Virus record (IMG/VR): IMGVR_UViG_2703719365_000009
DNA length: 42,461 nucleotides
Source of the DNA: a virus
Taxonomy: Duplodnaviria > Heunggongvirae > Uroviricota > Caudoviricetes
Reading direction: 5' to 3' (one strand)
Positions 2,738 to 20,256 of this stretch are shown here, one piece after another. The position numbers and the translations under genes are program-made. The notes below the pieces were generated by a model. It had not been told where the DNA came from, ran no database searches, and saw only the letters and a program-made list of their open reading frames with translations. How positions within the stretch are numbered: position 1 is the stretch's first letter; each line of letters opens with the position of its first letter.

Positions 2738-4828
2738 ATGTGGGTAACAGCAAAAGAATGTGTTGGTCTTCCTGATTTACCAATGATGGAACATAACATT
2801 CGCCATCGACTCACAAAAGCAGCTGCGGGAAATGCAGCCATGTTACGCAAACGTAAGGGGACAAAAGCAATCGAATTTAATATCGATTGTTTGCCTTCTG
2901 GCGCGCAACAAGTATTGCGTGAACGTTATGCCCTTCAACTGATGACGCAAAAAGCTGATGAATCACCGGCTCCGGTGGTGACAAAGGCCAGACGCTCGCC
3001 TGCCGTGGTTGATGCTGTGGAGGCATATCGCGGATCACCACAACTGATGGTTGAACGCCTTAATGCCCTGACTGAAAACCAGCGCCAGGTGGCTGATGCA
3101 CGAATCGCGATCGTCAGCGAAGTGATGAAAGTCGCGCAACAACCCGGTTTCAGCTGTGCGAAAGCTATCCGGTTTATCGTTGACAACCTGGCACGTTCGC
3201 AGCTGGACGAGCGCATTGTGGCAATGGTTGAGACGGCGAACGCCAAAAAGGGAAACAGCCGTGCGTTGAGTGAAATCACGCTGAAACGCTGGATTGCAGC
3301 CTTTAACAAGGCGCAGAACGCCGCCGAACGCCTGCTTTTACTGGCACCGGGTAAGCGCCAGGAAATAAAAGCCGAAGATATTAACTGGCTGCCCGAATTT
3401 CTGGCGCAGTATCGCCAGTCAAACGGCCGACCAATGACCGAGGCTTACGAGGATTTTGTCGCTGAATGGCAGCACCGGCACGCTGATGAGCCTTATATGC
3501 TCGATATCATGCCGTCTTATGACACCATTCGCCGCGCAATGAAGAAACTGCCGGAAGTGGTGAAACAAAAAGGCCGGGTGACCGGCAGTGAATACCGCCA
3601 GCTTGAGGGATTCACGCGCCGCGACTGGTCCAGAATGCCGGTGAATTATGTCTGGATTGGTGACGGTCACGGCATGAAGCTGAAATGCGCACACCCGGTT
3701 CACGGTCGGCCATTTGCACCGGAAGTGACCTTTGTTATCGACGGTGGCACGCGCTTTGTGGTGGGCTGGAGCCTTGACCTGGCTGAAAATGTTTTCGCCG
3801 TAGCCGGTGCCATACAGCACGGCATTCGCCATCACGGCAAACCGTTTCTGTATTACTCGGATAACGGCTCCGGGGAAACCGCCGACATCCTGGATAAGGA
3901 GGTTGTGGGGATACTGCCGCGACTGGGGATTAATCACCCGACCGGGATTGCCGGTAATCCGCAGGGACGAGGCATTATCGAACGGCTTAACCGCACATTA
4001 CCGATGCGCATAGCCCGTAAATACCGCACCTATTTCGGGAAAGGTGCAGATCGCGAGACGTTACGCAAAACCAACCGCGATTTACGCTCGGCATTTACTG
4101 CCCTGCAACAGGGCAAACGGCTGAACGTCCGGCAGCAGTCAGCGATGCGTGATTTACCGTCCTGGTCTGAACTGATTGATGCCATTCGTGACGGTGTTGA
4201 GTGGTACAACAACCGGCCGCACGATGAATTACCGGTGAAGCCGAACGGCAAGCATTACAGCCCGGCGGAGTTCAGAAAAAAACGCCTGGCGGAAGAGGAC
4301 ACGGAAATTGAATGGCTGTCCGATGTTGAGCTGCGGGATATGTTCCGGCCGATGGTGGAACGCCCTGTAAGACGCTGTGAAATACGCTGGCTGAATAATA
4401 TTTACTACGCGCCCGAGCTGCGTGACGAGCATGGTCGTAAGGTGCTTATCAGCTATGACATTCATGATGCCGAACGAATTACCGTACGTCGCCTGGATGG
4501 CAGCGTGATTTGCGAGGCGGTATGGGACGGTAATAAACGCGAAGCCTTCCCGGTCAGCGCGGAATACTACAAACAGCAGCAACGCCTTAAAGGCATGCGT
4601 AAACGCGCAGAGGAAAAAATCCGTGATGCCGAGGATGAGGTTGTCAACGTGCTGGAGCACAAGCCGCAGGAGCCCTGGCTGGAAAACATATACCGCCCTG
4701 TGGGTAATACGGTGGCCGTTCAGCAACCTGCCGTTGATGATGAGCCTGATGAAGAATACGAGCGTAATTTCCAGCGGGGATTGCAGTTGCTCGAAGCGAA
4801 ATTAAAAGAAAATGACCCGCTGGCCTGA
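2738..4828 (+). CDS. A: Transposase A (MuA-like DDE transposase)
   Basis: 696 aa; N-terminus MWVTAKECVGLPDLP resembles MuA N-terminus; position after ner. Confidence 0.93.
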   Translation: MWVTAKECVGLPDLPMMEHNIRHRLTKAAAGNAAMLRKRKGTKAIEFNIDCLPSGAQQVLRERYALQLMTQKADESPAPVVTKARRSPAVVDAVEAYRGSPQLMVERLNALTENQRQVADARIAIVSEVMKVAQQPGFSCAKAIRFIVDNLARSQLDERIVAMVETANAKKGNSRALSEITLKRWIAAFNKAQNAAERLLLLAPGKRQEIKAEDINWLPEFLAQYRQSNGRPMTEAYEDFVAEWQHRHADEPYMLDIMPSYDTIRRAMKKLPEVVKQKGRVTGSEYRQLEGFTRRDWSRMPVNYVWIGDGHGMKLKCAHPVHGRPFAPEVTFVIDGGTRFVVGWSLDLAENVFAVAGAIQHGIRHHGKPFLYYSDNGSGETADILDKEVVGILPRLGINHPTGIAGNPQGRGIIERLNRTLPMRIARKYRTYFGKGADRETLRKTNRDLRSAFTALQQGKRLNVRQQSAMRDLPSWSELIDAIRDGVEWYNNRPHDELPVKPNGKHYSPAEFRKKRLAEEDTEIEWLSDVELRDMFRPMVERPVRRCEIRWLNNIYYAPELRDEHGRKVLISYDIHDAERITVRRLDGSVICEAVWDGNKREAFPVSAEYYKQQQRLKGMRKRAEEKIRDAEDEVVNVLEHKPQEPWLENIYRPVGNTVAVQQPAVDDEPDEEYERNFQRGLQLLEAKLKENDPLA

Positions 4829-4898
4829 AATAAAAAATAACCCGAGCGGCGACTCAGGTTATTTGATTAAACAAGGTATCAAATGAGAGGTTAATAAT

Positions 4899-5831
4899 AT
4901 GACTGATATTAACGATGTAATCAAGACCATTGATGAACTTATTGATGGCGGCGTACTGACGCAGTATGCCATCGCCAGAGAGGCGGGAATTTCCGACGGC
5001 ACATTATCGGCTTTCCGTAAGGGAAAATATAAAGGCGATAACGCTGCTGTGGCTGCTTCCCTGCGTTCCTGGTATGAGAACTGGAATAAACAAAGCGCAC
5101 TGCCGGAACCGCCGCAGTTTGTGGAAACGCAGACAGTCCAGGAGCTGCGCGCACTGTTTCAGGCGGTTCGTCTGATGGGCTGTATTAACGTTATTGTGGG
5201 CGTACCGGGTGTGGGTAAAACGGCCACTGCCCGTAATTACTGCCAGGAGCAACCAAACACCTGGATGATCACCCTGTCACCCGCGCACTCCAGCGTCACG
5301 GAGTGTCTGCTGGAGCTGGCCGATGCGCTGGGGATTGATTACACCCGCGCGAACAAAGGGGCATTATCCCGCGCCATCCGCCGTCGCCTGATGGGAACGC
5401 GTGGACTGGTGATTGTGGATGAGGCGGATCATCTGGGTATTGACGGTCTGGAGCAACTCCGGGCAATTCAGGACGCCACGGGGATCGGGATGGTGCTTAT
5501 TGGTAACCCGCGCGGATTGTTTAAAGGTGGACGCCGCGCCTTTGATGATTTATCGCGCCTGTTCAGCCGTCTTGCCCGTACAAAACAACTTCGCAAGGCC
5601 AAAAAGGCGGATGTGCTGGCCATTGCCAGGGCATGGGGTATCAGTGGTGAGGCCGAGCTGGCCGTCATGCAGGCTATCGCTGAAAAGCCGGGAGCGTTAC
5701 GCGTTCTGACACATACGCTTAACCAGGCGTGGCTCACCGCCAGCGGTGAAGGCGCGGCGCTGACAGAAAAACATATTAATGCGGCCTTTAAAGAGGTTTA
5801 TACCAACCCTGAATTACTCTCACAGGTGTGA
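4899..5831 (+). CDS. B: Transposition ATPase B (MuB-like AAA+ target DNA activator)
   Basis: 310 aa; Walker A GVPGVGKT; strong overall resemblance to MuB including PEPPQFVETQTV and VIVDEADHLG segments. Confidence 0.93.
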   Translation: MTDINDVIKTIDELIDGGVLTQYAIAREAGISDGTLSAFRKGKYKGDNAAVAASLRSWYENWNKQSALPEPPQFVETQTVQELRALFQAVRLMGCINVIVGVPGVGKTATARNYCQEQPNTWMITLSPAHSSVTECLLELADALGIDYTRANKGALSRAIRRRLMGTRGLVIVDEADHLGIDGLEQLRAIQDATGIGMVLIGNPRGLFKGGRRAFDDLSRLFSRLARTKQLRKAKKADVLAIARAWGISGEAELAVMQAIAEKPGALRVLTHTLNQAWLTASGEGAALTEKHINAAFKEVYTNPELLSQV

Positions 5832-6055
5832 TTATGGCGGTATTTAATATTCCTGATATTTACGGACGCTTTTACCTGGTTAATTTCGATAACGTGAAGG
5901 TGATTTCACTGGCCGAAAATAAAGAATGTGGCGATTTACTTTTTGAATTTAATGACCGCACACGAATGGTGATATCTGCCGGACTTGATCGCGAAGGTGC
6001 GACAGACGTTTACAGCGGAATATGCCGTTCTGTTGGTGCGAAACAAGTCAGCTAA
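5828..6055 (+). CDS. Small early protein at the Mu kil position (Kil-like by position and size)
   Basis: 75 aa; start overlaps B stop (ATGA coupling); Mu kil is about 74 aa immediately after B. Confidence 0.5.
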   Translation: MIMAVFNIPDIYGRFYLVNFDNVKVISLAENKECGDLLFEFNDRTRMVISAGLDREGATDVYSGICRSVGAKQVS

Positions 6056-6067
6056 ATGAGGTGTTAT

Positions 6068-6322
6068 ATGAATATGCAATCCTGCGGTAACAAAATGAAT
6101 TTATTCGACTCCCTGAACAGCGCGCGCCGTCTGACCGAACTTGCCGGTGCGGTACTGGAACGCAGTAAGCGCTACCCACAACGTTTTGCACTGAAAACCA
6201 CGCCGCCGGTAGGCAACGTGCAGGGAACCGGTGAAATTGAAATCACCATACAGACCAACGGCCTGCGCCGCCGTGTGAAGGCCACCCGCATCAGCGGCTG
6301 CACGGTTTACTGGGAGGTGTGA
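6068..6322 (+). CDS. Hypothetical early protein
   Basis: ORF with RBS GAGG before ATG 6068 (alternative ATG at 6056). Confidence 0.5.
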   Translation: MNMQSCGNKMNLFDSLNSARRLTELAGAVLERSKRYPQRFALKTTPPVGNVQGTGEIEITIQTNGLRRRVKATRISGCTVYWEV

Positions 6323-6323
6323 G

Positions 6324-6605
6324 GTGAAAAAAAATCTCATTGCATGGGCGTGGTCGAGTGGTCTTATTGAGTTTGGTTACGTCCTGCCGGAAGGTGCATT
6401 GCCGATAGTTGCCGGAAAGCCTGCCACGGTACGGCATGTGATTGAGGTTATGGCGCGTCATGGACGTGATGAACAGGAGCAGTTACTGGTTCCGGGGATA
6501 CCGGAAGCGGTGACGGAGGAAGAAGCCTTTAATGCCATGATTCGGTTCTGCCGTGAGGTCAGACGCCGGGTCAGTTATCCAAACAGAACGAGGACCAGAG
6601 GATGA
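6324..6605 (+). CDS. Hypothetical early protein
   Basis: 93 aa; GTG start with RBS GGAGGTG; tightly packed in early operon. Confidence 0.5.
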   Translation: MKKNLIAWAWSSGLIEFGYVLPEGALPIVAGKPATVRHVIEVMARHGRDEQEQLLVPGIPEAVTEEEAFNAMIRFCREVRRRVSYPNRTRTRG

Positions 6606-6874
6606 GTAAAGTCGTACGCATTATTTTCGAATACAAGGAGCACGTTATCCATAAAAACGCTGATGGAACAGTGCGCATGGGGGTAAGTCTGGACATACGT
6701 TCAACCGGGATAAAGCAGAAAGGTGATGGACCCGCCATGATTTTTGGGGTGGTTATGCTCGCGGAAAGCAGAGACTTTGCTGAACTTGTGGCAATGAAAG
6801 CCAGTGCGCTCATGAAAGATATGAGCATGCGTTCCGGGGTTATTAAAGGTAATGAATTTAATCAGCAGGGGTAA
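6602..6874 (+). CDS. Hypothetical early protein, paralog A of tandem pair
   Basis: 90 aa; N-terminus MSKVVRIIFEYKEHV similar to the next gene MSKVRVIFEFKHVSH; start overlaps upstream stop. Confidence 0.6.
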   Translation: MSKVVRIIFEYKEHVIHKNADGTVRMGVSLDIRSTGIKQKGDGPAMIFGVVMLAESRDFAELVAMKASALMKDMSMRSGVIKGNEFNQQG

Positions 6875-6878
6875 TTCC

Positions 6879-7172
6879 ATGAGCAAAGTACGCGTTATTT
6901 TTGAATTTAAGCATGTTTCGCATGACGAAAAACCGGCAGGCAATGACTGTGTTGAAGTGCATGAAAAGATTGGTGTGGATGTAAAAACAGAACGTGATAC
7001 GAATAACAGGCCGACGTCACTCTGTGACGTTTATGCAAGTATTCTCCAGTATCACAGCCCTGAAATTATTCAGTTTCTCTCAGCGGAATTTCAGGCATCT
7101 GTACAGGCTTTTGGGGCGGATGCCATCATTAAACGCCACCGCGTGCATAAAGCATCAGGCACACTGCAATAA
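6879..7172 (+). CDS. Hypothetical early protein, paralog B of tandem pair
   Basis: 97 aa from ATG 6879 with RBS AGGGG; paralogous N-terminus to 6602-6874. Confidence 0.6.
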   Translation: MSKVRVIFEFKHVSHDEKPAGNDCVEVHEKIGVDVKTERDTNNRPTSLCDVYASILQYHSPEIIQFLSAEFQASVQAFGADAIIKRHRVHKASGTLQ

Positions 7173-16757: not shown

Positions 16758-18346
16758 TGGGACGCATAATTGATCTTGACGGAAAACCTTTCTCCTTTGA
16801 CCCGGAGATGCAGAGTGCCGTGCTGGATATTCCGCAGATTGCCAGCCGTTATATTGAACATCCGGCCTCGGGTATCACCCCGAACCGGGCGGCACAGTGC
16901 CTTCGCGGAGCTGAACGTGGCGATCTGATTGCCCAGTCCGATCTGGCCGCTGACATTGAAGAAAAGGATACCCACCTTTTTGCAGAGCTGGGCAAGCGAC
17001 GCCTTGCCATTCAGGGGGTGTCCTGGAGTATTGAGCCGCCCCCGAACGCCAGCGCGAATGAGAAAAAGGACGCGGAAATGCTCGACGAATATCTGCATTC
17101 CGCCGACTGGTTTGATGCCATGCTGTTTGATGCCACCGATGCCATCCTGAAGGGCTATTCCTGTATGGAGATTGAGCACGGGATGCTCGGTAAAATGCAC
17201 ATCATCCGCGCCATCCGCTGGCGTGACAGCGGGCATTTCTGCCTTAACCCGGATGATTTGAGCGAACTGCGGCTGCGTGACGGCAGCCATGCCGGGGTGG
17301 CGTTTCAGCCCTTTGGCTGGATAGTGCATCAGTCGCGTTCACGCACTGGCTACGGTGGTGCGACGGGGCTTGTCAGAACGCTTATCTGGCCGTTCATTTT
17401 CAAAAACTATTCCGTGCGCGATCTGGCTGAATTTCTGGAGGTGTACGGCCTGCCGATGAAGGTCGGTAAATACCCGTCCGGGGCAACACCGGAGCAGAAA
17501 AGCGCCCTGATGCGGGCGGTGATGGATATCGGGCGACGTACAGGCGGGATCATCCCGGCCGGGATGTCGCTGGAGTTTCAGGCGGCAGCGAACGGTCAGG
17601 CCGATCCGTTTGAAACCATGATTTCGTGGGGGGAGCGTTCCATCTCCAAAGCTATCCTCGGCGGCACGCTGACCACGGAAGCCGGAGACAAGGGCGCACG
17701 TTCGCTGGGTGAAGTGCATAACGAGGTGCGCCGGGAAATCAGGGATTCTGATTTACGTCAGCTGGCCGCCACGCTGAACCGCGATCTGGTGTATCCGCTG
17801 TATGCCCTGAACACCGCCCACGCCATTGATATCCGTCGCCTGCCGCGTATCTGTTTCCAGACAAAAGAGCCGGGGGATATCACCAAAATCACCAGTGCGG
17901 TGATGCAGCTCAGTACGGGGATGGATATTCCTGATCCCTGGGTGCGGGAGCAGACCGGTATTCCACAGCCTGCCCCCGGTGAAGCCATCTTCCGTGTCCG
18001 TCAGAGTGGCAATGAACCTGCTCAGACAGACAAAGAGATGCCACCGGAAAAACAGGAGAAGACAGAGCAGACAGCGCTGGCTGCCAGACTGCCGGAAGCG
18101 AAGAGCAGCCCCCGAGATGAACTGGACGACATGGGGGATGCGGTGCCTGCCCGCCGGTTACAGGAGGCCATCGACCCGGTACTGGAGCCGGTCATTGAAG
18201 CCATCAGAACGCGGGGGCTGGCGGAGGCACTGGCAGACCTGCCTGCCCTTTACCGTGAAATGGATGATTCCCGCCTGATGACGCTGCTCAGTGATGCCAT
18301 GTTTGCTGCGGAAATGAAGGGGATGCTGGATGGCACAGGGGATTGA
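16748..18346 (+). CDS. Portal protein (Mu gp29-like)
   Basis: 532 aa; GTG start overlapping terminase stop; follows terminase. Confidence 0.85.
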   Translation: MLVVGRIIDLDGKPFSFDPEMQSAVLDIPQIASRYIEHPASGITPNRAAQCLRGAERGDLIAQSDLAADIEEKDTHLFAELGKRRLAIQGVSWSIEPPPNASANEKKDAEMLDEYLHSADWFDAMLFDATDAILKGYSCMEIEHGMLGKMHIIRAIRWRDSGHFCLNPDDLSELRLRDGSHAGVAFQPFGWIVHQSRSRTGYGGATGLVRTLIWPFIFKNYSVRDLAEFLEVYGLPMKVGKYPSGATPEQKSALMRAVMDIGRRTGGIIPAGMSLEFQAAANGQADPFETMISWGERSISKAILGGTLTTEAGDKGARSLGEVHNEVRREIRDSDLRQLAATLNRDLVYPLYALNTAHAIDIRRLPRICFQTKEPGDITKITSAVMQLSTGMDIPDPWVREQTGIPQPAPGEAIFRVRQSGNEPAQTDKEMPPEKQEKTEQTALAARLPEAKSSPRDELDDMGDAVPARRLQEAIDPVLEPVIEAIRTRGLAEALADLPALYREMDDSRLMTLLSDAMFAAEMKGMLDGTGD

Positions 18347-19661
18347 TTTAGGTTATGCCGCCACGCTTCCCTCAAAAGAGGCGGTGGCATACTTCCGCGC
18401 CAAAGGGGCGCATATCAGCTGGAACTGGTTCGAAACAGACGCGGATGTTCATGCCCGTTCATTCACGGCGGCAAAAGTGGCACGCCTGGACGTACTGACC
18501 ACACTACAGGCGGAAGTGCAGCGTGCTGTTGATGAGGGGATTTCACAGAAAGCATTTATCCGCACACTGACACCCCGCCTGCAAAAGCTGGGATGGTGGG
18601 GAAAGCAGATTGTGGTGGACAGCGCCGGTAACGCAGAAGAAGTGCAACTGGGCAGTCCCCGCCGTCTGGCGCTGATTTACAACGTGAACACCCGCGTGGC
18701 TTACAATGCCGGGCGTTACACGCAGATGATGAACAACACGGACACGCATCCGTTCTGGCAGTATGTGGCGGTGATGGACAGCCGCACCCGCCCGGCGCAT
18801 TCCGCCCTTAACGGGCAGGTATTCCGCTATGACGATCCGTTCTGGAATACACACTACCCACCCAATGGCTGGAACTGCCGCTGCCGTGTCCGGCCATTGT
18901 CTCAGACCCGTCTGGATGCAATGGGGTTATCCGTTTCATCCGGTCAGGATCATCTTTCCACCCGCAATGTTGAGGCTGGCGTGGATAAGCAGACCGGAGA
19001 AGTCAGAGAAATGCCGGTGACCACATATTCAGATGGCACCAGAACCATGACACCGGATGTGGGCTGGTCATATAACCCCGGCTCGGCGGCGTTCGGCACA
19101 GACCAGGCGTTGATCCGTAAACTGATCGAGGTGAAAAGCCCGGCGCTGCGGGAAATGGTGGTGCAGGAGATGAACAACAGCCCGGAGCGGCAGCTGGCGT
19201 TCCGCATCTGGGCAAAAAACATCATGAAAACCCGGCGAGGCGGTAACGATATCCGCACGCTGGGCTTTATGACCGAAAGCATTGCGCAGGCGGTGGAAAG
19301 CCGGACGGGAACGCCACCGGCCCGCCTGCTGGCGATGAGCGGTAAAAATGTGCTCCATGCGGACAGCGTGAAACATCAGAATGACGGCATCGCCCTGACG
19401 CCGGAGGATTTCGGGCGATTACCGGCAATGCTGGCAAAGCCAAAAGCGGTACTGTGGGATAAACGCCACAACAATCTGATGTATATCGTGGAAAGTAAGG
19501 ATGGCAGTGTGCAGATTGCCGTTAATGCGCCGTACAGCCTGAAGCGTCAGCCGGATAAACTGGATGTGATTGTGAATGCTTACCGGGTTATCAATATGGA
19601 TAAGCTGAAATCGGATATCCGGGGCGGAATGCTTGAGGTACTGGAAGGAGATATTGATTAA
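18330..19661 (+). CDS. Head morphogenesis protein (Mu F / gp30-like)
   Basis: 443 aa; follows portal, overlapping start. Confidence 0.8.
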   Translation: MAQGIDLGYAATLPSKEAVAYFRAKGAHISWNWFETDADVHARSFTAAKVARLDVLTTLQAEVQRAVDEGISQKAFIRTLTPRLQKLGWWGKQIVVDSAGNAEEVQLGSPRRLALIYNVNTRVAYNAGRYTQMMNNTDTHPFWQYVAVMDSRTRPAHSALNGQVFRYDDPFWNTHYPPNGWNCRCRVRPLSQTRLDAMGLSVSSGQDHLSTRNVEAGVDKQTGEVREMPVTTYSDGTRTMTPDVGWSYNPGSAAFGTDQALIRKLIEVKSPALREMVVQEMNNSPERQLAFRIWAKNIMKTRRGGNDIRTLGFMTESIAQAVESRTGTPPARLLAMSGKNVLHADSVKHQNDGIALTPEDFGRLPAMLAKPKAVLWDKRHNNLMYIVESKDGSVQIAVNAPYSLKRQPDKLDVIVNAYRVINMDKLKSDIRGGMLEVLEGDID

Positions 19662-19782
19662 CGGTCAGTGGCGGGGGTCGAACCCGCATACATGATCCAC
19701 CCGGAGGCAGGCACCGACTTTACCAGTTAAGCGTACACTGACCGCCTGCTTATTTTATATTCATATTTTATACGGAGGCAAT

Positions 19783-20256
19783 ATGTCATCCATTGATGCC
19801 GCCGTCGTTGTTGACGTTACGCGTCTCCAGCGGGTCTTTGCCCGGCTTCAGTTTGTGGGTGGCGGAAAAGACCTGGCCCGCAGTGTGGCGTCCAGCCTTC
19901 TGTCATCGTCAGAAATGGCGTTTGAACAGGAAAAAGAGCCGGACGGCGAACGCTGGCATGACTGGTCAGATCCTTACCGCAAGTGGCGTACCCGTAAGGG
20001 ATACATGCCCGGCAAAATCCTGACGCTGAACGGCGATCTGGCCCGACGCCTGACCACGGATTATGGCGACACCTGGGCGCTGATTGGATCAAATGAGCCT
20101 TATGCGGCCATTCATCAGTGGGGTGGCCTGCCAGGTATGCCGCCGGGACCGGCGGCCATTGGTGCACGTCCGTATATGGGCTTTGATCAGGTGGCAGAGC
20201 AGGAGATCATGGACGAAATCAGAAAACGCTTTAAAAAGGCCACAGAAACGCCTTAA
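19783..20256 (+). CDS. Virion morphogenesis protein (Mu G-like)
   Basis: 157 aa; RBS GGAGG; Mu G is about 156 aa at this position. Confidence 0.75.
   Translation: MSSIDAAVVVDVTRLQRVFARLQFVGGGKDLARSVASSLLSSSEMAFEQEKEPDGERWHDWSDPYRKWRTRKGYMPGKILTLNGDLARRLTTDYGDTWALIGSNEPYAAIHQWGGLPGMPPGPAAIGARPYMGFDQVAEQEIMDEIRKRFKKATETP

Follow-up and report, generated by a model that had tools for sequence, protein, structure and literature searches.

The spacer between the head genes F and G of a Mu-like prophage of E. coli appears to hold a functional RNA gene that is coupled to MuF-C, the C-terminal domain of the F protein, a reading to which we assign a probability of roughly 0.8 on the basis of sequence comparisons. 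The site had already been tagged "tRNA-OTHER" automatically; the RNA family and its link with MuF-C are new as far as our searches of the literature and Rfam go. Rfam yielded no family specific to this RNA, the literature search found no description of the RNA or of an RNA-MuF-C link, and an RNA-seq paper mentioning prophage Sp18 contains nothing on this RNA.

A tRNA-shaped element between genes F and G

The window, meaning the whole stretch of 42,461 nucleotides that was analysed, is a Mu-like prophage of E. coli. Two Stx-phage records contain an "inserted Bacteriophage Mu-like phage" that shares 98.5% identity with this region, and prophages in many Shiga-toxin-producing E. coli (STEC) genomes share 96-100%. 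Gene F (18330-19661, plus strand) encodes a Mu gp30-like minor head protein (Pfam Phage_Mu_F, PF04233, 103.4 bits) which also has a C-terminal MuF_C domain that scores above the curated cutoff (PF18819, 30.9 bits against 27.6). Gene G (19783-20256, plus strand) encodes a virion morphogenesis or tail-completion protein (Phage_tail_S, PF05069, 116.7 bits). These F-like and G-like reading frames bear out the placement of the element between two head genes, and the 121-nt spacer that separates them contains it. A small protein encoded in the spacer was considered and rejected, since the open reading frames there are just 20-32 amino acids long.

An anticodon-less, tRNA-like RNA gene is recognized at 19662-19744 on the minus strand by the Rfam tRNA model, by our covariance model R1 and by its fold. 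The ends of the RNA form an acceptor-type helix in which the 5' strand CGGTCAGTG (19736-19744) pairs with the 3' strand CACTGACCG (19662-19670). The 7-bp acceptor stem GTCAGTG/CACTGAC of the original prediction is present on the minus strand and is actually part of this 9-bp helix; the 9-bp inverted repeat that had been described as flanking the element also exists, not as a separate feature but as the acceptor helix itself, two pairs longer. The 3' strand lies directly next to the complement of the stop codon of F (19659-19661), and in homologues it is packed equally tight against that codon. The linker TAC and the D-arm GCTT-AACTGGTA-AAGT follow at 19717-19735, and the D-arm (19732-19717) includes A14, the expected conserved G18 and G19, and A21. 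The T-arm GCGGG-TTCGACC-CCCGC, evident in the sequence, the Rfam alignment and the fold, lies at 19687-19671 as described, and the sequence confirms that CCA is not encoded.

The middle of the molecule departs from both a tRNA and the original description of it. The anticodon-arm substitute and its linkers occupy 19688-19716 (minus strand), where the minimum-free-energy fold contains the hairpin CUGCC-UCCG-GGUGG (19710-19697). The claim that no anticodon stem could form is thus incorrect: a 5-bp stem, CUGCC/GGUGG, stands where the anticodon arm belongs, with a 4-nt UCCG loop on top of it, and what is missing is the 7-nt loop of a canonical anticodon arm. The nucleotides of the D-arm/T-arm elbow (A14, G18G19, T54-Psi55-C56 and A58) are all in place. 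An AlaRS-type G3:U70 identity pair, which was sought by eye in the element, is absent. Judged from these features, the RNA is tRNA-shaped and cannot decode.

The likeness to canonical tRNA (RF00005) comprises the acceptor helix, A14/G18G19/A21 in the D-arm, the TTCRA T-loop, U8 and an R15-Y48-type pair, and the closest canonical tRNAs are phage-type tRNAs with TAATGGTA D-loops. The element differs from them in having no 7-nt loop or anticodon and one extra nucleotide in the 8-9 linker. Further differences hold for the family as a whole: the acceptor helix is 8-14 bp long (at least 8 bp in all members, 12-14 bp in some) and reaches into what would be the leader and trailer of a tRNA, neither a single-stranded NCCA nor an encoded CCA is present, and the middle arm varies freely in length and sequence.

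General tRNA detection tools give conflicting answers for this element. A sensitive search of 301 nt with the Rfam tRNA model produced the covariance-model match that had been proposed as a check, at 19663-19742, with 31.0 bits against a gathering score of 29 (E = 8e-5). The alignment covers every part save the anticodon arm, and the score passes gathering only with that arm skipped. Rfam in gathering mode with default filters reported nothing over the whole window. ARAGORN found no tRNA gene in the window, and its output on 16 related loci was confined to "tRNA-???" calls and a true tRNA-Val whose context is unrelated. The element at 19662-19743 receives 95.3 bits from covariance model R1. 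The thermodynamic z-score, -1.8, is unremarkable by itself, and the case for a real element therefore rests on the comparison of homologues.

RefSeq places the label "tRNA-OTHER" at the identical site in E. coli E2855 and many other E. coli genomes, and the annotation occurs in 230 of the 5,426 complete E. coli genomes as well as in many other Mu-like phage sequences. It is applied inconsistently to copies of the region at 19600-19800 of the window: copies with 100%, 98% and 74% identity are labelled tRNA-OTHER, and copies with about 97% identity, which include those of O157:H7 FRIK804 and O111:H8, have no tRNA annotation.

Homologues, strand and promoter

Homologues were gathered by pattern scans and with covariance model R1. 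A pattern scan of genome contigs gave just three loci, and about 50 distinct versions were recovered overall, nearly all of them in the F-G spacer, antisense to the late genes and with the 3' end at the F stop codon. Their sources are E. coli, Alishewanella jeotgali, Pasteurella phage Pmp9, a gammaproteobacterial genome from the cattle gut (rumen) and many IMG/VR contigs, and in many of these contigs F is just ~40-65% identical to that of the window. Comparison of the F-G spacers of relatives showed the tRNA-like structure and in no case an intact tRNA. The structure is thus conserved in related phages, in addition to being matched by a covariance model.

In an alignment of 51 homologues, 97.3% of cells form standard pairs and 15 of the 16 pairs have changed on both sides. 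Such changes affect 8/8 modelled pairs of the acceptor-type helix and 4/5 pairs of the T-arm, and the D-stem covaries in distant members (GGAT/ATTC, GCAT/ATGC, GTCT/GGAC). None of 500 shuffles reached the observed values, structures slid by 1-3 columns paired at only 39-50%, and the same covariation picture emerged when 16 sequences were aligned with MAFFT independently of the model. GTAC, A14, G18, G19 and A21 are invariant in alignment A1, and U8 and the T-loop are invariant or nearly so. The middle arm, 17-41 nt long, has no conserved sequence and is always a stable hairpin; a canonical anticodon loop is missing from all of the roughly 48 distinct versions. According to these alignments, purifying selection acts on the element, and each of its three tRNA helices shows compensatory changes.

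The original prediction considered the element a relic, that is, a decayed tRNA gene, which in this case would have no present function. A gene of that kind could well lack an anticodon loop and CCA and be passed over by ARAGORN, as this one is. Decay would not be expected to leave the element at one conserved position in phages whose F proteins are so divergent, with covarying pairs, a conserved promoter and a hairpin always kept in the middle arm. The compensatory changes, the conserved tertiary-contact nucleotides and the uniform absence of an anticodon loop contradict the relic interpretation, and we consider it very improbable.

Several lines of evidence indicate that the minus strand is the functional one. 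Read on this strand, the pairs of the family include 37 G.U against 5 A.C combinations, and the middle hairpins of the 48 versions end in loops of the stable UNCG (10), GNRA (3) and CUUG (1) types. A sigma-70-type promoter that matches the consensus is also correctly placed for transcription of this strand (19752-19781, minus strand): its -35 element TTGCCT (19781-19776) and -10 element TAAAAT (19757-19752) are separated by an 18-nt spacer, and the -10 element ends 7-8 nt ahead of the helix. Promoters with at least 9 of 12 consensus matches are found in this place in 60% of 48 distinct upstream regions, compared with 2.3% of shuffles. The suggestion that the structure is part of the late transcript fails on these same grounds, as the sense strand of the RNA is opposite to the late genes. 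On the comparative evidence, the element is a separate small-RNA gene, predicted to be transcribed convergently opposite the late genes from its own promoter.

The position of the gene raises the question of whether it acts as an antisense or cis regulator of F and G expression or mRNA processing, either by pairing of the minus-strand RNA or through structure in the plus strand. Complementarity between the RNA and the F-G spacer of the late mRNA is perfect, and the -35 element of the RNA gene overlaps the Shine-Dalgarno sequence of G on the opposite strand. Pairing of this kind would require neither U8, A14, G18G19 and the T-loop consensus nor compensatory changes that keep a cloverleaf, Mu-type phages couple F and G by a 4-nt overlap, and the excess of G.U pairs rules out the plus strand as the selected structure. 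Regulation of F and G is, in our estimate, an improbable explanation of the family.

Some loci depart from the usual arrangement. In L167 (~3850-4160, minus strand), a 340-nt F-G spacer holds three tandem, diverged tRNA-like copies, with promoter-like sequences ahead of at least the first and third. At L146 (3826-3958) and L158 (3787-3921), both on the minus strand, the tRNA-like element is followed by a GC-rich hairpin that resembles a terminator, e.g. AACGCCCCGCACTGCGGGGCGTT. A hairpin of this kind is missing from the window, where transcription would continue into F in the antisense direction.

Copies of the RNA without an F gene were also found. E. coli JNEC-KY179 has two in tandem, L002 3995-4078 and 4100-4192 on the minus strand (the 507-706 region of L213), annotated "tRNA-Tyr" and "tRNA-OTHER". 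The tRNA-Tyr label was rejected: it stems from a palindromic hairpin with a GUAC loop, and there is no real anticodon loop. The two copies occupy the distal end of an 8-kb island that is inserted at tRNA-Ile, and this island carries an integrase, Ash, Icd-like genes, a RepA helicase, SSB, PerC and a Mor activator and no F gene, and looks like a phage satellite with "orphan" RNA copies. A further F-less copy in Alishewanella aestuarii (L061 4456-4528, plus strand) is ~130 nt from a CRISPR-type array (~4656 to 7087; 28-nt repeats TTTCTAAGCTGCCTGTTCGGCAGTGAAG, period 60), and a real tRNA-Gly precedes this copy by ~730 nt. In the sister species, A. jeotgali, the RNA is at the customary F-G site and there is no array. 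Additional F-less copies occur at L118, L130 and L135. A different kind of relative is found on a high-GC phage contig (L126 4968-5042, minus strand), where a tRNA-Val(CAC) combines the unusual TAC linker of the family with an 8-bp acceptor helix. Its site is outside the F-G spacer, downstream of a perfect TTGACA-17-TAAGAT promoter, and it may resemble the ancestor of the family.

Linkage to the MuF-C domain of F

MuF-C was classed as a PBECR (phage-BECR) RNase domain by Iyer et al. 2017 (PMC5512222), who described an active-site His in an N-terminal helix plus a C-terminal Ser/Thr, and who called the Mu gp30 copy inactive and its orthologues probably active RNases. In the F protein of the window the MuF-C/PBECR region spans amino acids ~347-429, and the candidate active-site motif H343-A-D-S-V-K-H349 is encoded at 19356-19376 (plus strand). 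H42, S45, K47 and H48 of the C-domain fragment are invariant among 34 sequences, and thus H343 and H349 are invariant. In a predicted model that was made with the alignment, the His residues of the motif fall in helical segments 37-43 and 46-51 of the fragment. A single-sequence AlphaFold2 model of the C-domain was too poor for use (pLDDT 58.5), a Foldseek search of the C-domain model against the PDB gave no significant match, and a homologue search with the C-domain alone returned fragments only. A BECR fold consists of an N-terminal helix and, after it, a sheet of 4-5 strands. Its assignment here, suggested by the model, agrees with the published one and is weak by itself; the catalytic role of H343 and H349 is predicted at the level of the family.

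The presence of this motif tracks the presence of the RNA gene. In an alignment of C-termini, the F proteins that adjoin the RNA carry L-x-H-A-D-S-x-K-H. Mu gp30 lacks H343 and H349, and in Mu and Shewanella phage MuM16-1, both without the RNA, the motif segment is deleted or replaced. At the F-G junctions of Mu, D108 and SfMu there is no tRNA-like element, and F and G overlap by 4 nt. We fetched 75 further F loci and tabulated motif, spacer and RNA for each. All 36 loci with H-x-D-S-x-K-H have a spacer of 85-340 nt, and R1 detected the RNA in 35 of them; the 36th (L160) falls below the R1 threshold, yet folds as a cloverleaf. Conversely, in each of the 13 MuF-C loci where the strict motif is absent, F and G overlap or lie no more than 9 nt apart, and there is no RNA. 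The motif is deleted or degenerate in 12 of these, and the 13th, Ralstonia locus L137, has a related His motif. This Ralstonia phage, YO088_1, is one possible exception, as its F keeps the His-containing "LLHLARDSK", overlaps G and has no RNA; the protein lies outside the H-x-D-S-x-K-H clade and matches MuF_C weakly (15.8 bits). Among the tabulated loci there was none with the RNA beside a dead motif.

To place these states on a phylogeny, a neighbour-joining tree was made from only the N-terminal 300 amino acids of F. Loci lacking both motif and RNA occur in about 6-7 separate places of the tree, nested among RNA-bearing relatives (the Mu group, L144/L145, L147, L151, L166 and the Shewanella group). 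The RNA-less lineages and their RNA-bearing neighbours are 84-99% identical in their N-termini and just 43-57% identical in their C-domains. A blind test on three more proteins, drawn from a large protein database, agreed with the association. P0166, in which the motif is degenerate and the N-terminus shares 96% identity with those of RNA-bearing phages (the C-terminus shares ~50%), proved to have an 11-nt spacer and no match to the RNA, and the motif-positive P0163 and P0135 gave RNA matches of 61.2 and 76.9 bits, as predicted.

The C-terminal region of F (~19230-19661 of the window, and its homologues) is mosaic, with N-termini 93-99% identical and C-domains 43-57% identical, a pattern which suggests either exchange of the C-domain and spacer as a cassette or very fast divergence. 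The apparent independent losses may be swaps of cassettes from unsampled donors. A single inactive cassette that was spread by recombination was considered as well; no two inactive C-domains from different lineages share more than 50% identity, which argues against a single origin.

This mosaicism is also relevant to the proposal that the RNA is a stand-alone prophage "moron" that acts on the host, for instance as a decoy for a tRNA-targeting toxin or defence nuclease of the host or a rival, or as a sponge for a tRNA-binding enzyme. The RNA would then be unrelated to F, and its link with the motif would result from a shared recombination cassette. Like other morons it has its own sigma-70 promoter pointing away from the late operon, and the F-less copies (after a Mor gene on the satellite-like island, by the CRISPR array and at three other loci) also speak for the proposal. 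Linkage alone leaves unexplained why motif and RNA were lost together in some six or seven lineages with unrelated inactive C-domains, why no locus retains the RNA beside a dead motif, and why F proteins of other PBECR families are paired with other structured RNAs. We regard this proposal as unlikely.

The pairing in other PBECR families was seen in loci with PBECR2 F proteins (L181, L201), PBECR3 F proteins (L104, L178, L195) and F proteins with a diverged MuF_C (L173, L138). Their F-G spacers, 100-170 nt long, hold other antisense, promoter-led RNAs with multiple stems that are conserved within each type, and Rfam has no family for them. RNAs of these kinds were noted at L178, L191, L203 and L210-L212, at L181, L198, L186, L100 and L176, and at L173 and L177, with two more at L138 1930-2012 and L104 3776-3866 (both minus strand); among the types are "GACACGGTG...CCGTAGCACGG" and "GGCGGGGTCGAGATTCCCGGAGCG". 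Short F proteins that have no C-domain overlap G. In L182, F has 393 amino acids, compared with 419 in its neighbour L181, and the spacer is just 24 nt.

Candidate roles and related systems

The reading that we favour for the role of the RNA, with a confidence that stops a little short of even odds, is that it is the cognate partner of the F RNase domain and most likely its antidote, in the form of an uncleavable tRNA pseudo-substrate. Known BECR tRNases cut the anticodon loop, as colicins D and E5 do, or the acceptor 3' end, as do some CdiA-CT toxins. In the proposed mechanism the RNA would bind the RNase domain of F through its tRNA body and would not be cleaved, as the anticodon loop and the single-stranded NCCA end are both absent: a tetraloop replaces the former, and the acceptor helix is sealed, lengthened and without NCCA. 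The RNase would in this way be kept silent in the cell that produces F, whether in late growth or when a lysogen expresses F leakily, and the RNA may in addition weaken an RNase that a superinfecting relative injects. Once packaged and delivered, F would no longer be restrained from attacking the RNA of the new host. The RNA gene is positioned directly after the predicted nuclease domain, which is the place of the immunity genes of colicins and MuF-fused toxins.

The co-occurrence of motif and RNA fits a role as substrate, cofactor or cargo as well as it fits an inhibitor, and the explanations considered here (substrate, cofactor or cargo; moron decoy; antisense regulator) account for it about equally well or somewhat less well. 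The RNA could thus partner MuF-C without inhibiting it, as a substrate that is processed, as a scaffold or cofactor, or as cargo that is carried in the capsid and injected. The same strict co-occurrence, and the same loss together with the His motif, would be expected of such a partner. F is a virion protein that is thought to be ejected along with the DNA, and an RNA-binding role has been proposed for the domain by Iyer et al. (PMC5512222). Mere binding, on the other hand, would allow the inactive domain of Mu to keep the RNA, yet the lineages with a dead motif have lost it. In addition, the RNA offers none of the sites at which BECR tRNases are known to cut. A partner that does not inhibit is accordingly a possibility that we hold to be rather unlikely.

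The antidote model resembles the ToxIN type III toxin-antitoxin system in its proposed logic, in which a structured RNA next to an endoRNase neutralises the enzyme and shares its fate, both being retained or both disappearing. In ToxI-type antitoxins, tandem repeats precede the toxin gene on its own strand; the toxin itself excises these RNAs, which adopt pseudoknot structures. The element, in contrast, is a single tRNA-shaped RNA that is convergent and downstream and has its own promoter; upstream, co-transcribed tandem repeats are not seen, and only L167 has three tandem copies. The RNase also differs, being a predicted BECR-fold domain of a virion protein rather than a ToxN fold. The colicin D/ImmD and colicin E5/ImmE5 pairs involve BECR tRNases, and their inhibitors are proteins, whereas the candidate inhibitor in this case is an RNA that looks like a tRNA.

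The closest parallel in domain architecture is with MuF-fused polymorphic toxins, which share an N-terminal Phage_Mu_F domain, a C-terminal BECR RNase and a conserved downstream partner gene. The downstream partner in these toxins, e.g. DUF4926 with BECR-Tox3/DUF6883, is a protein (bioRxiv 10.64898/2026.08.28.747851). In the loci described here the conserved object is an RNA structure, and no open reading frame in the spacer exceeds 32 amino acids. As for the RNA itself, YrlA is likewise a non-decoding RNA with the D/T elbow of a tRNA and an acceptor-like helix. In YrlA, which is encoded beside rsr (Ro60), the 5' and 3' ends pair to make the Ro-binding helix, and the acceptor-like stem has a loop at its tip. 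The ends of the element, by comparison, form the acceptor helix, its neighbours are F and G with no rsr nearby, and Rfam gave no Y-RNA match for it.

A broader interpretation, which we offer more tentatively than the antidote role itself, is that the virion-delivered MuF-C, PBECR2 and PBECR3 RNases of Mu-like phages are each accompanied by an antisense "immunity RNA" encoded after the domain, and that the one belonging to MuF-C is a disarmed tRNA which inhibits a tRNase by serving as a substrate that the enzyme cannot cut. If this interpretation is true, these RNAs are the counterpart of colicin immunity proteins and represent a new RNA antitoxin architecture, and the C-terminal domain found in relatives of Mu gp30, long without an explanation, targets tRNA. 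It suggests that the "missing" immunity genes of phage-borne RNase effectors are worth seeking among non-coding RNAs.

These results turn an unexplained "tRNA-OTHER" annotation into a defined RNA family with a testable role. They supply a first concrete lead on the function of MuF-C/PBECR domains, which until now had been predicted from sequence analysis only, and the RNA partner points to tRNA-shaped targets of MuF-C. They also offer a reason for the dead copy in Mu, namely a joint loss of the RNA and the active site. Should the antidote model be correct, a tRNA mimic would join the short list of RNA antitoxins, and nature would provide a design for an RNA inhibitor of BECR tRNases.
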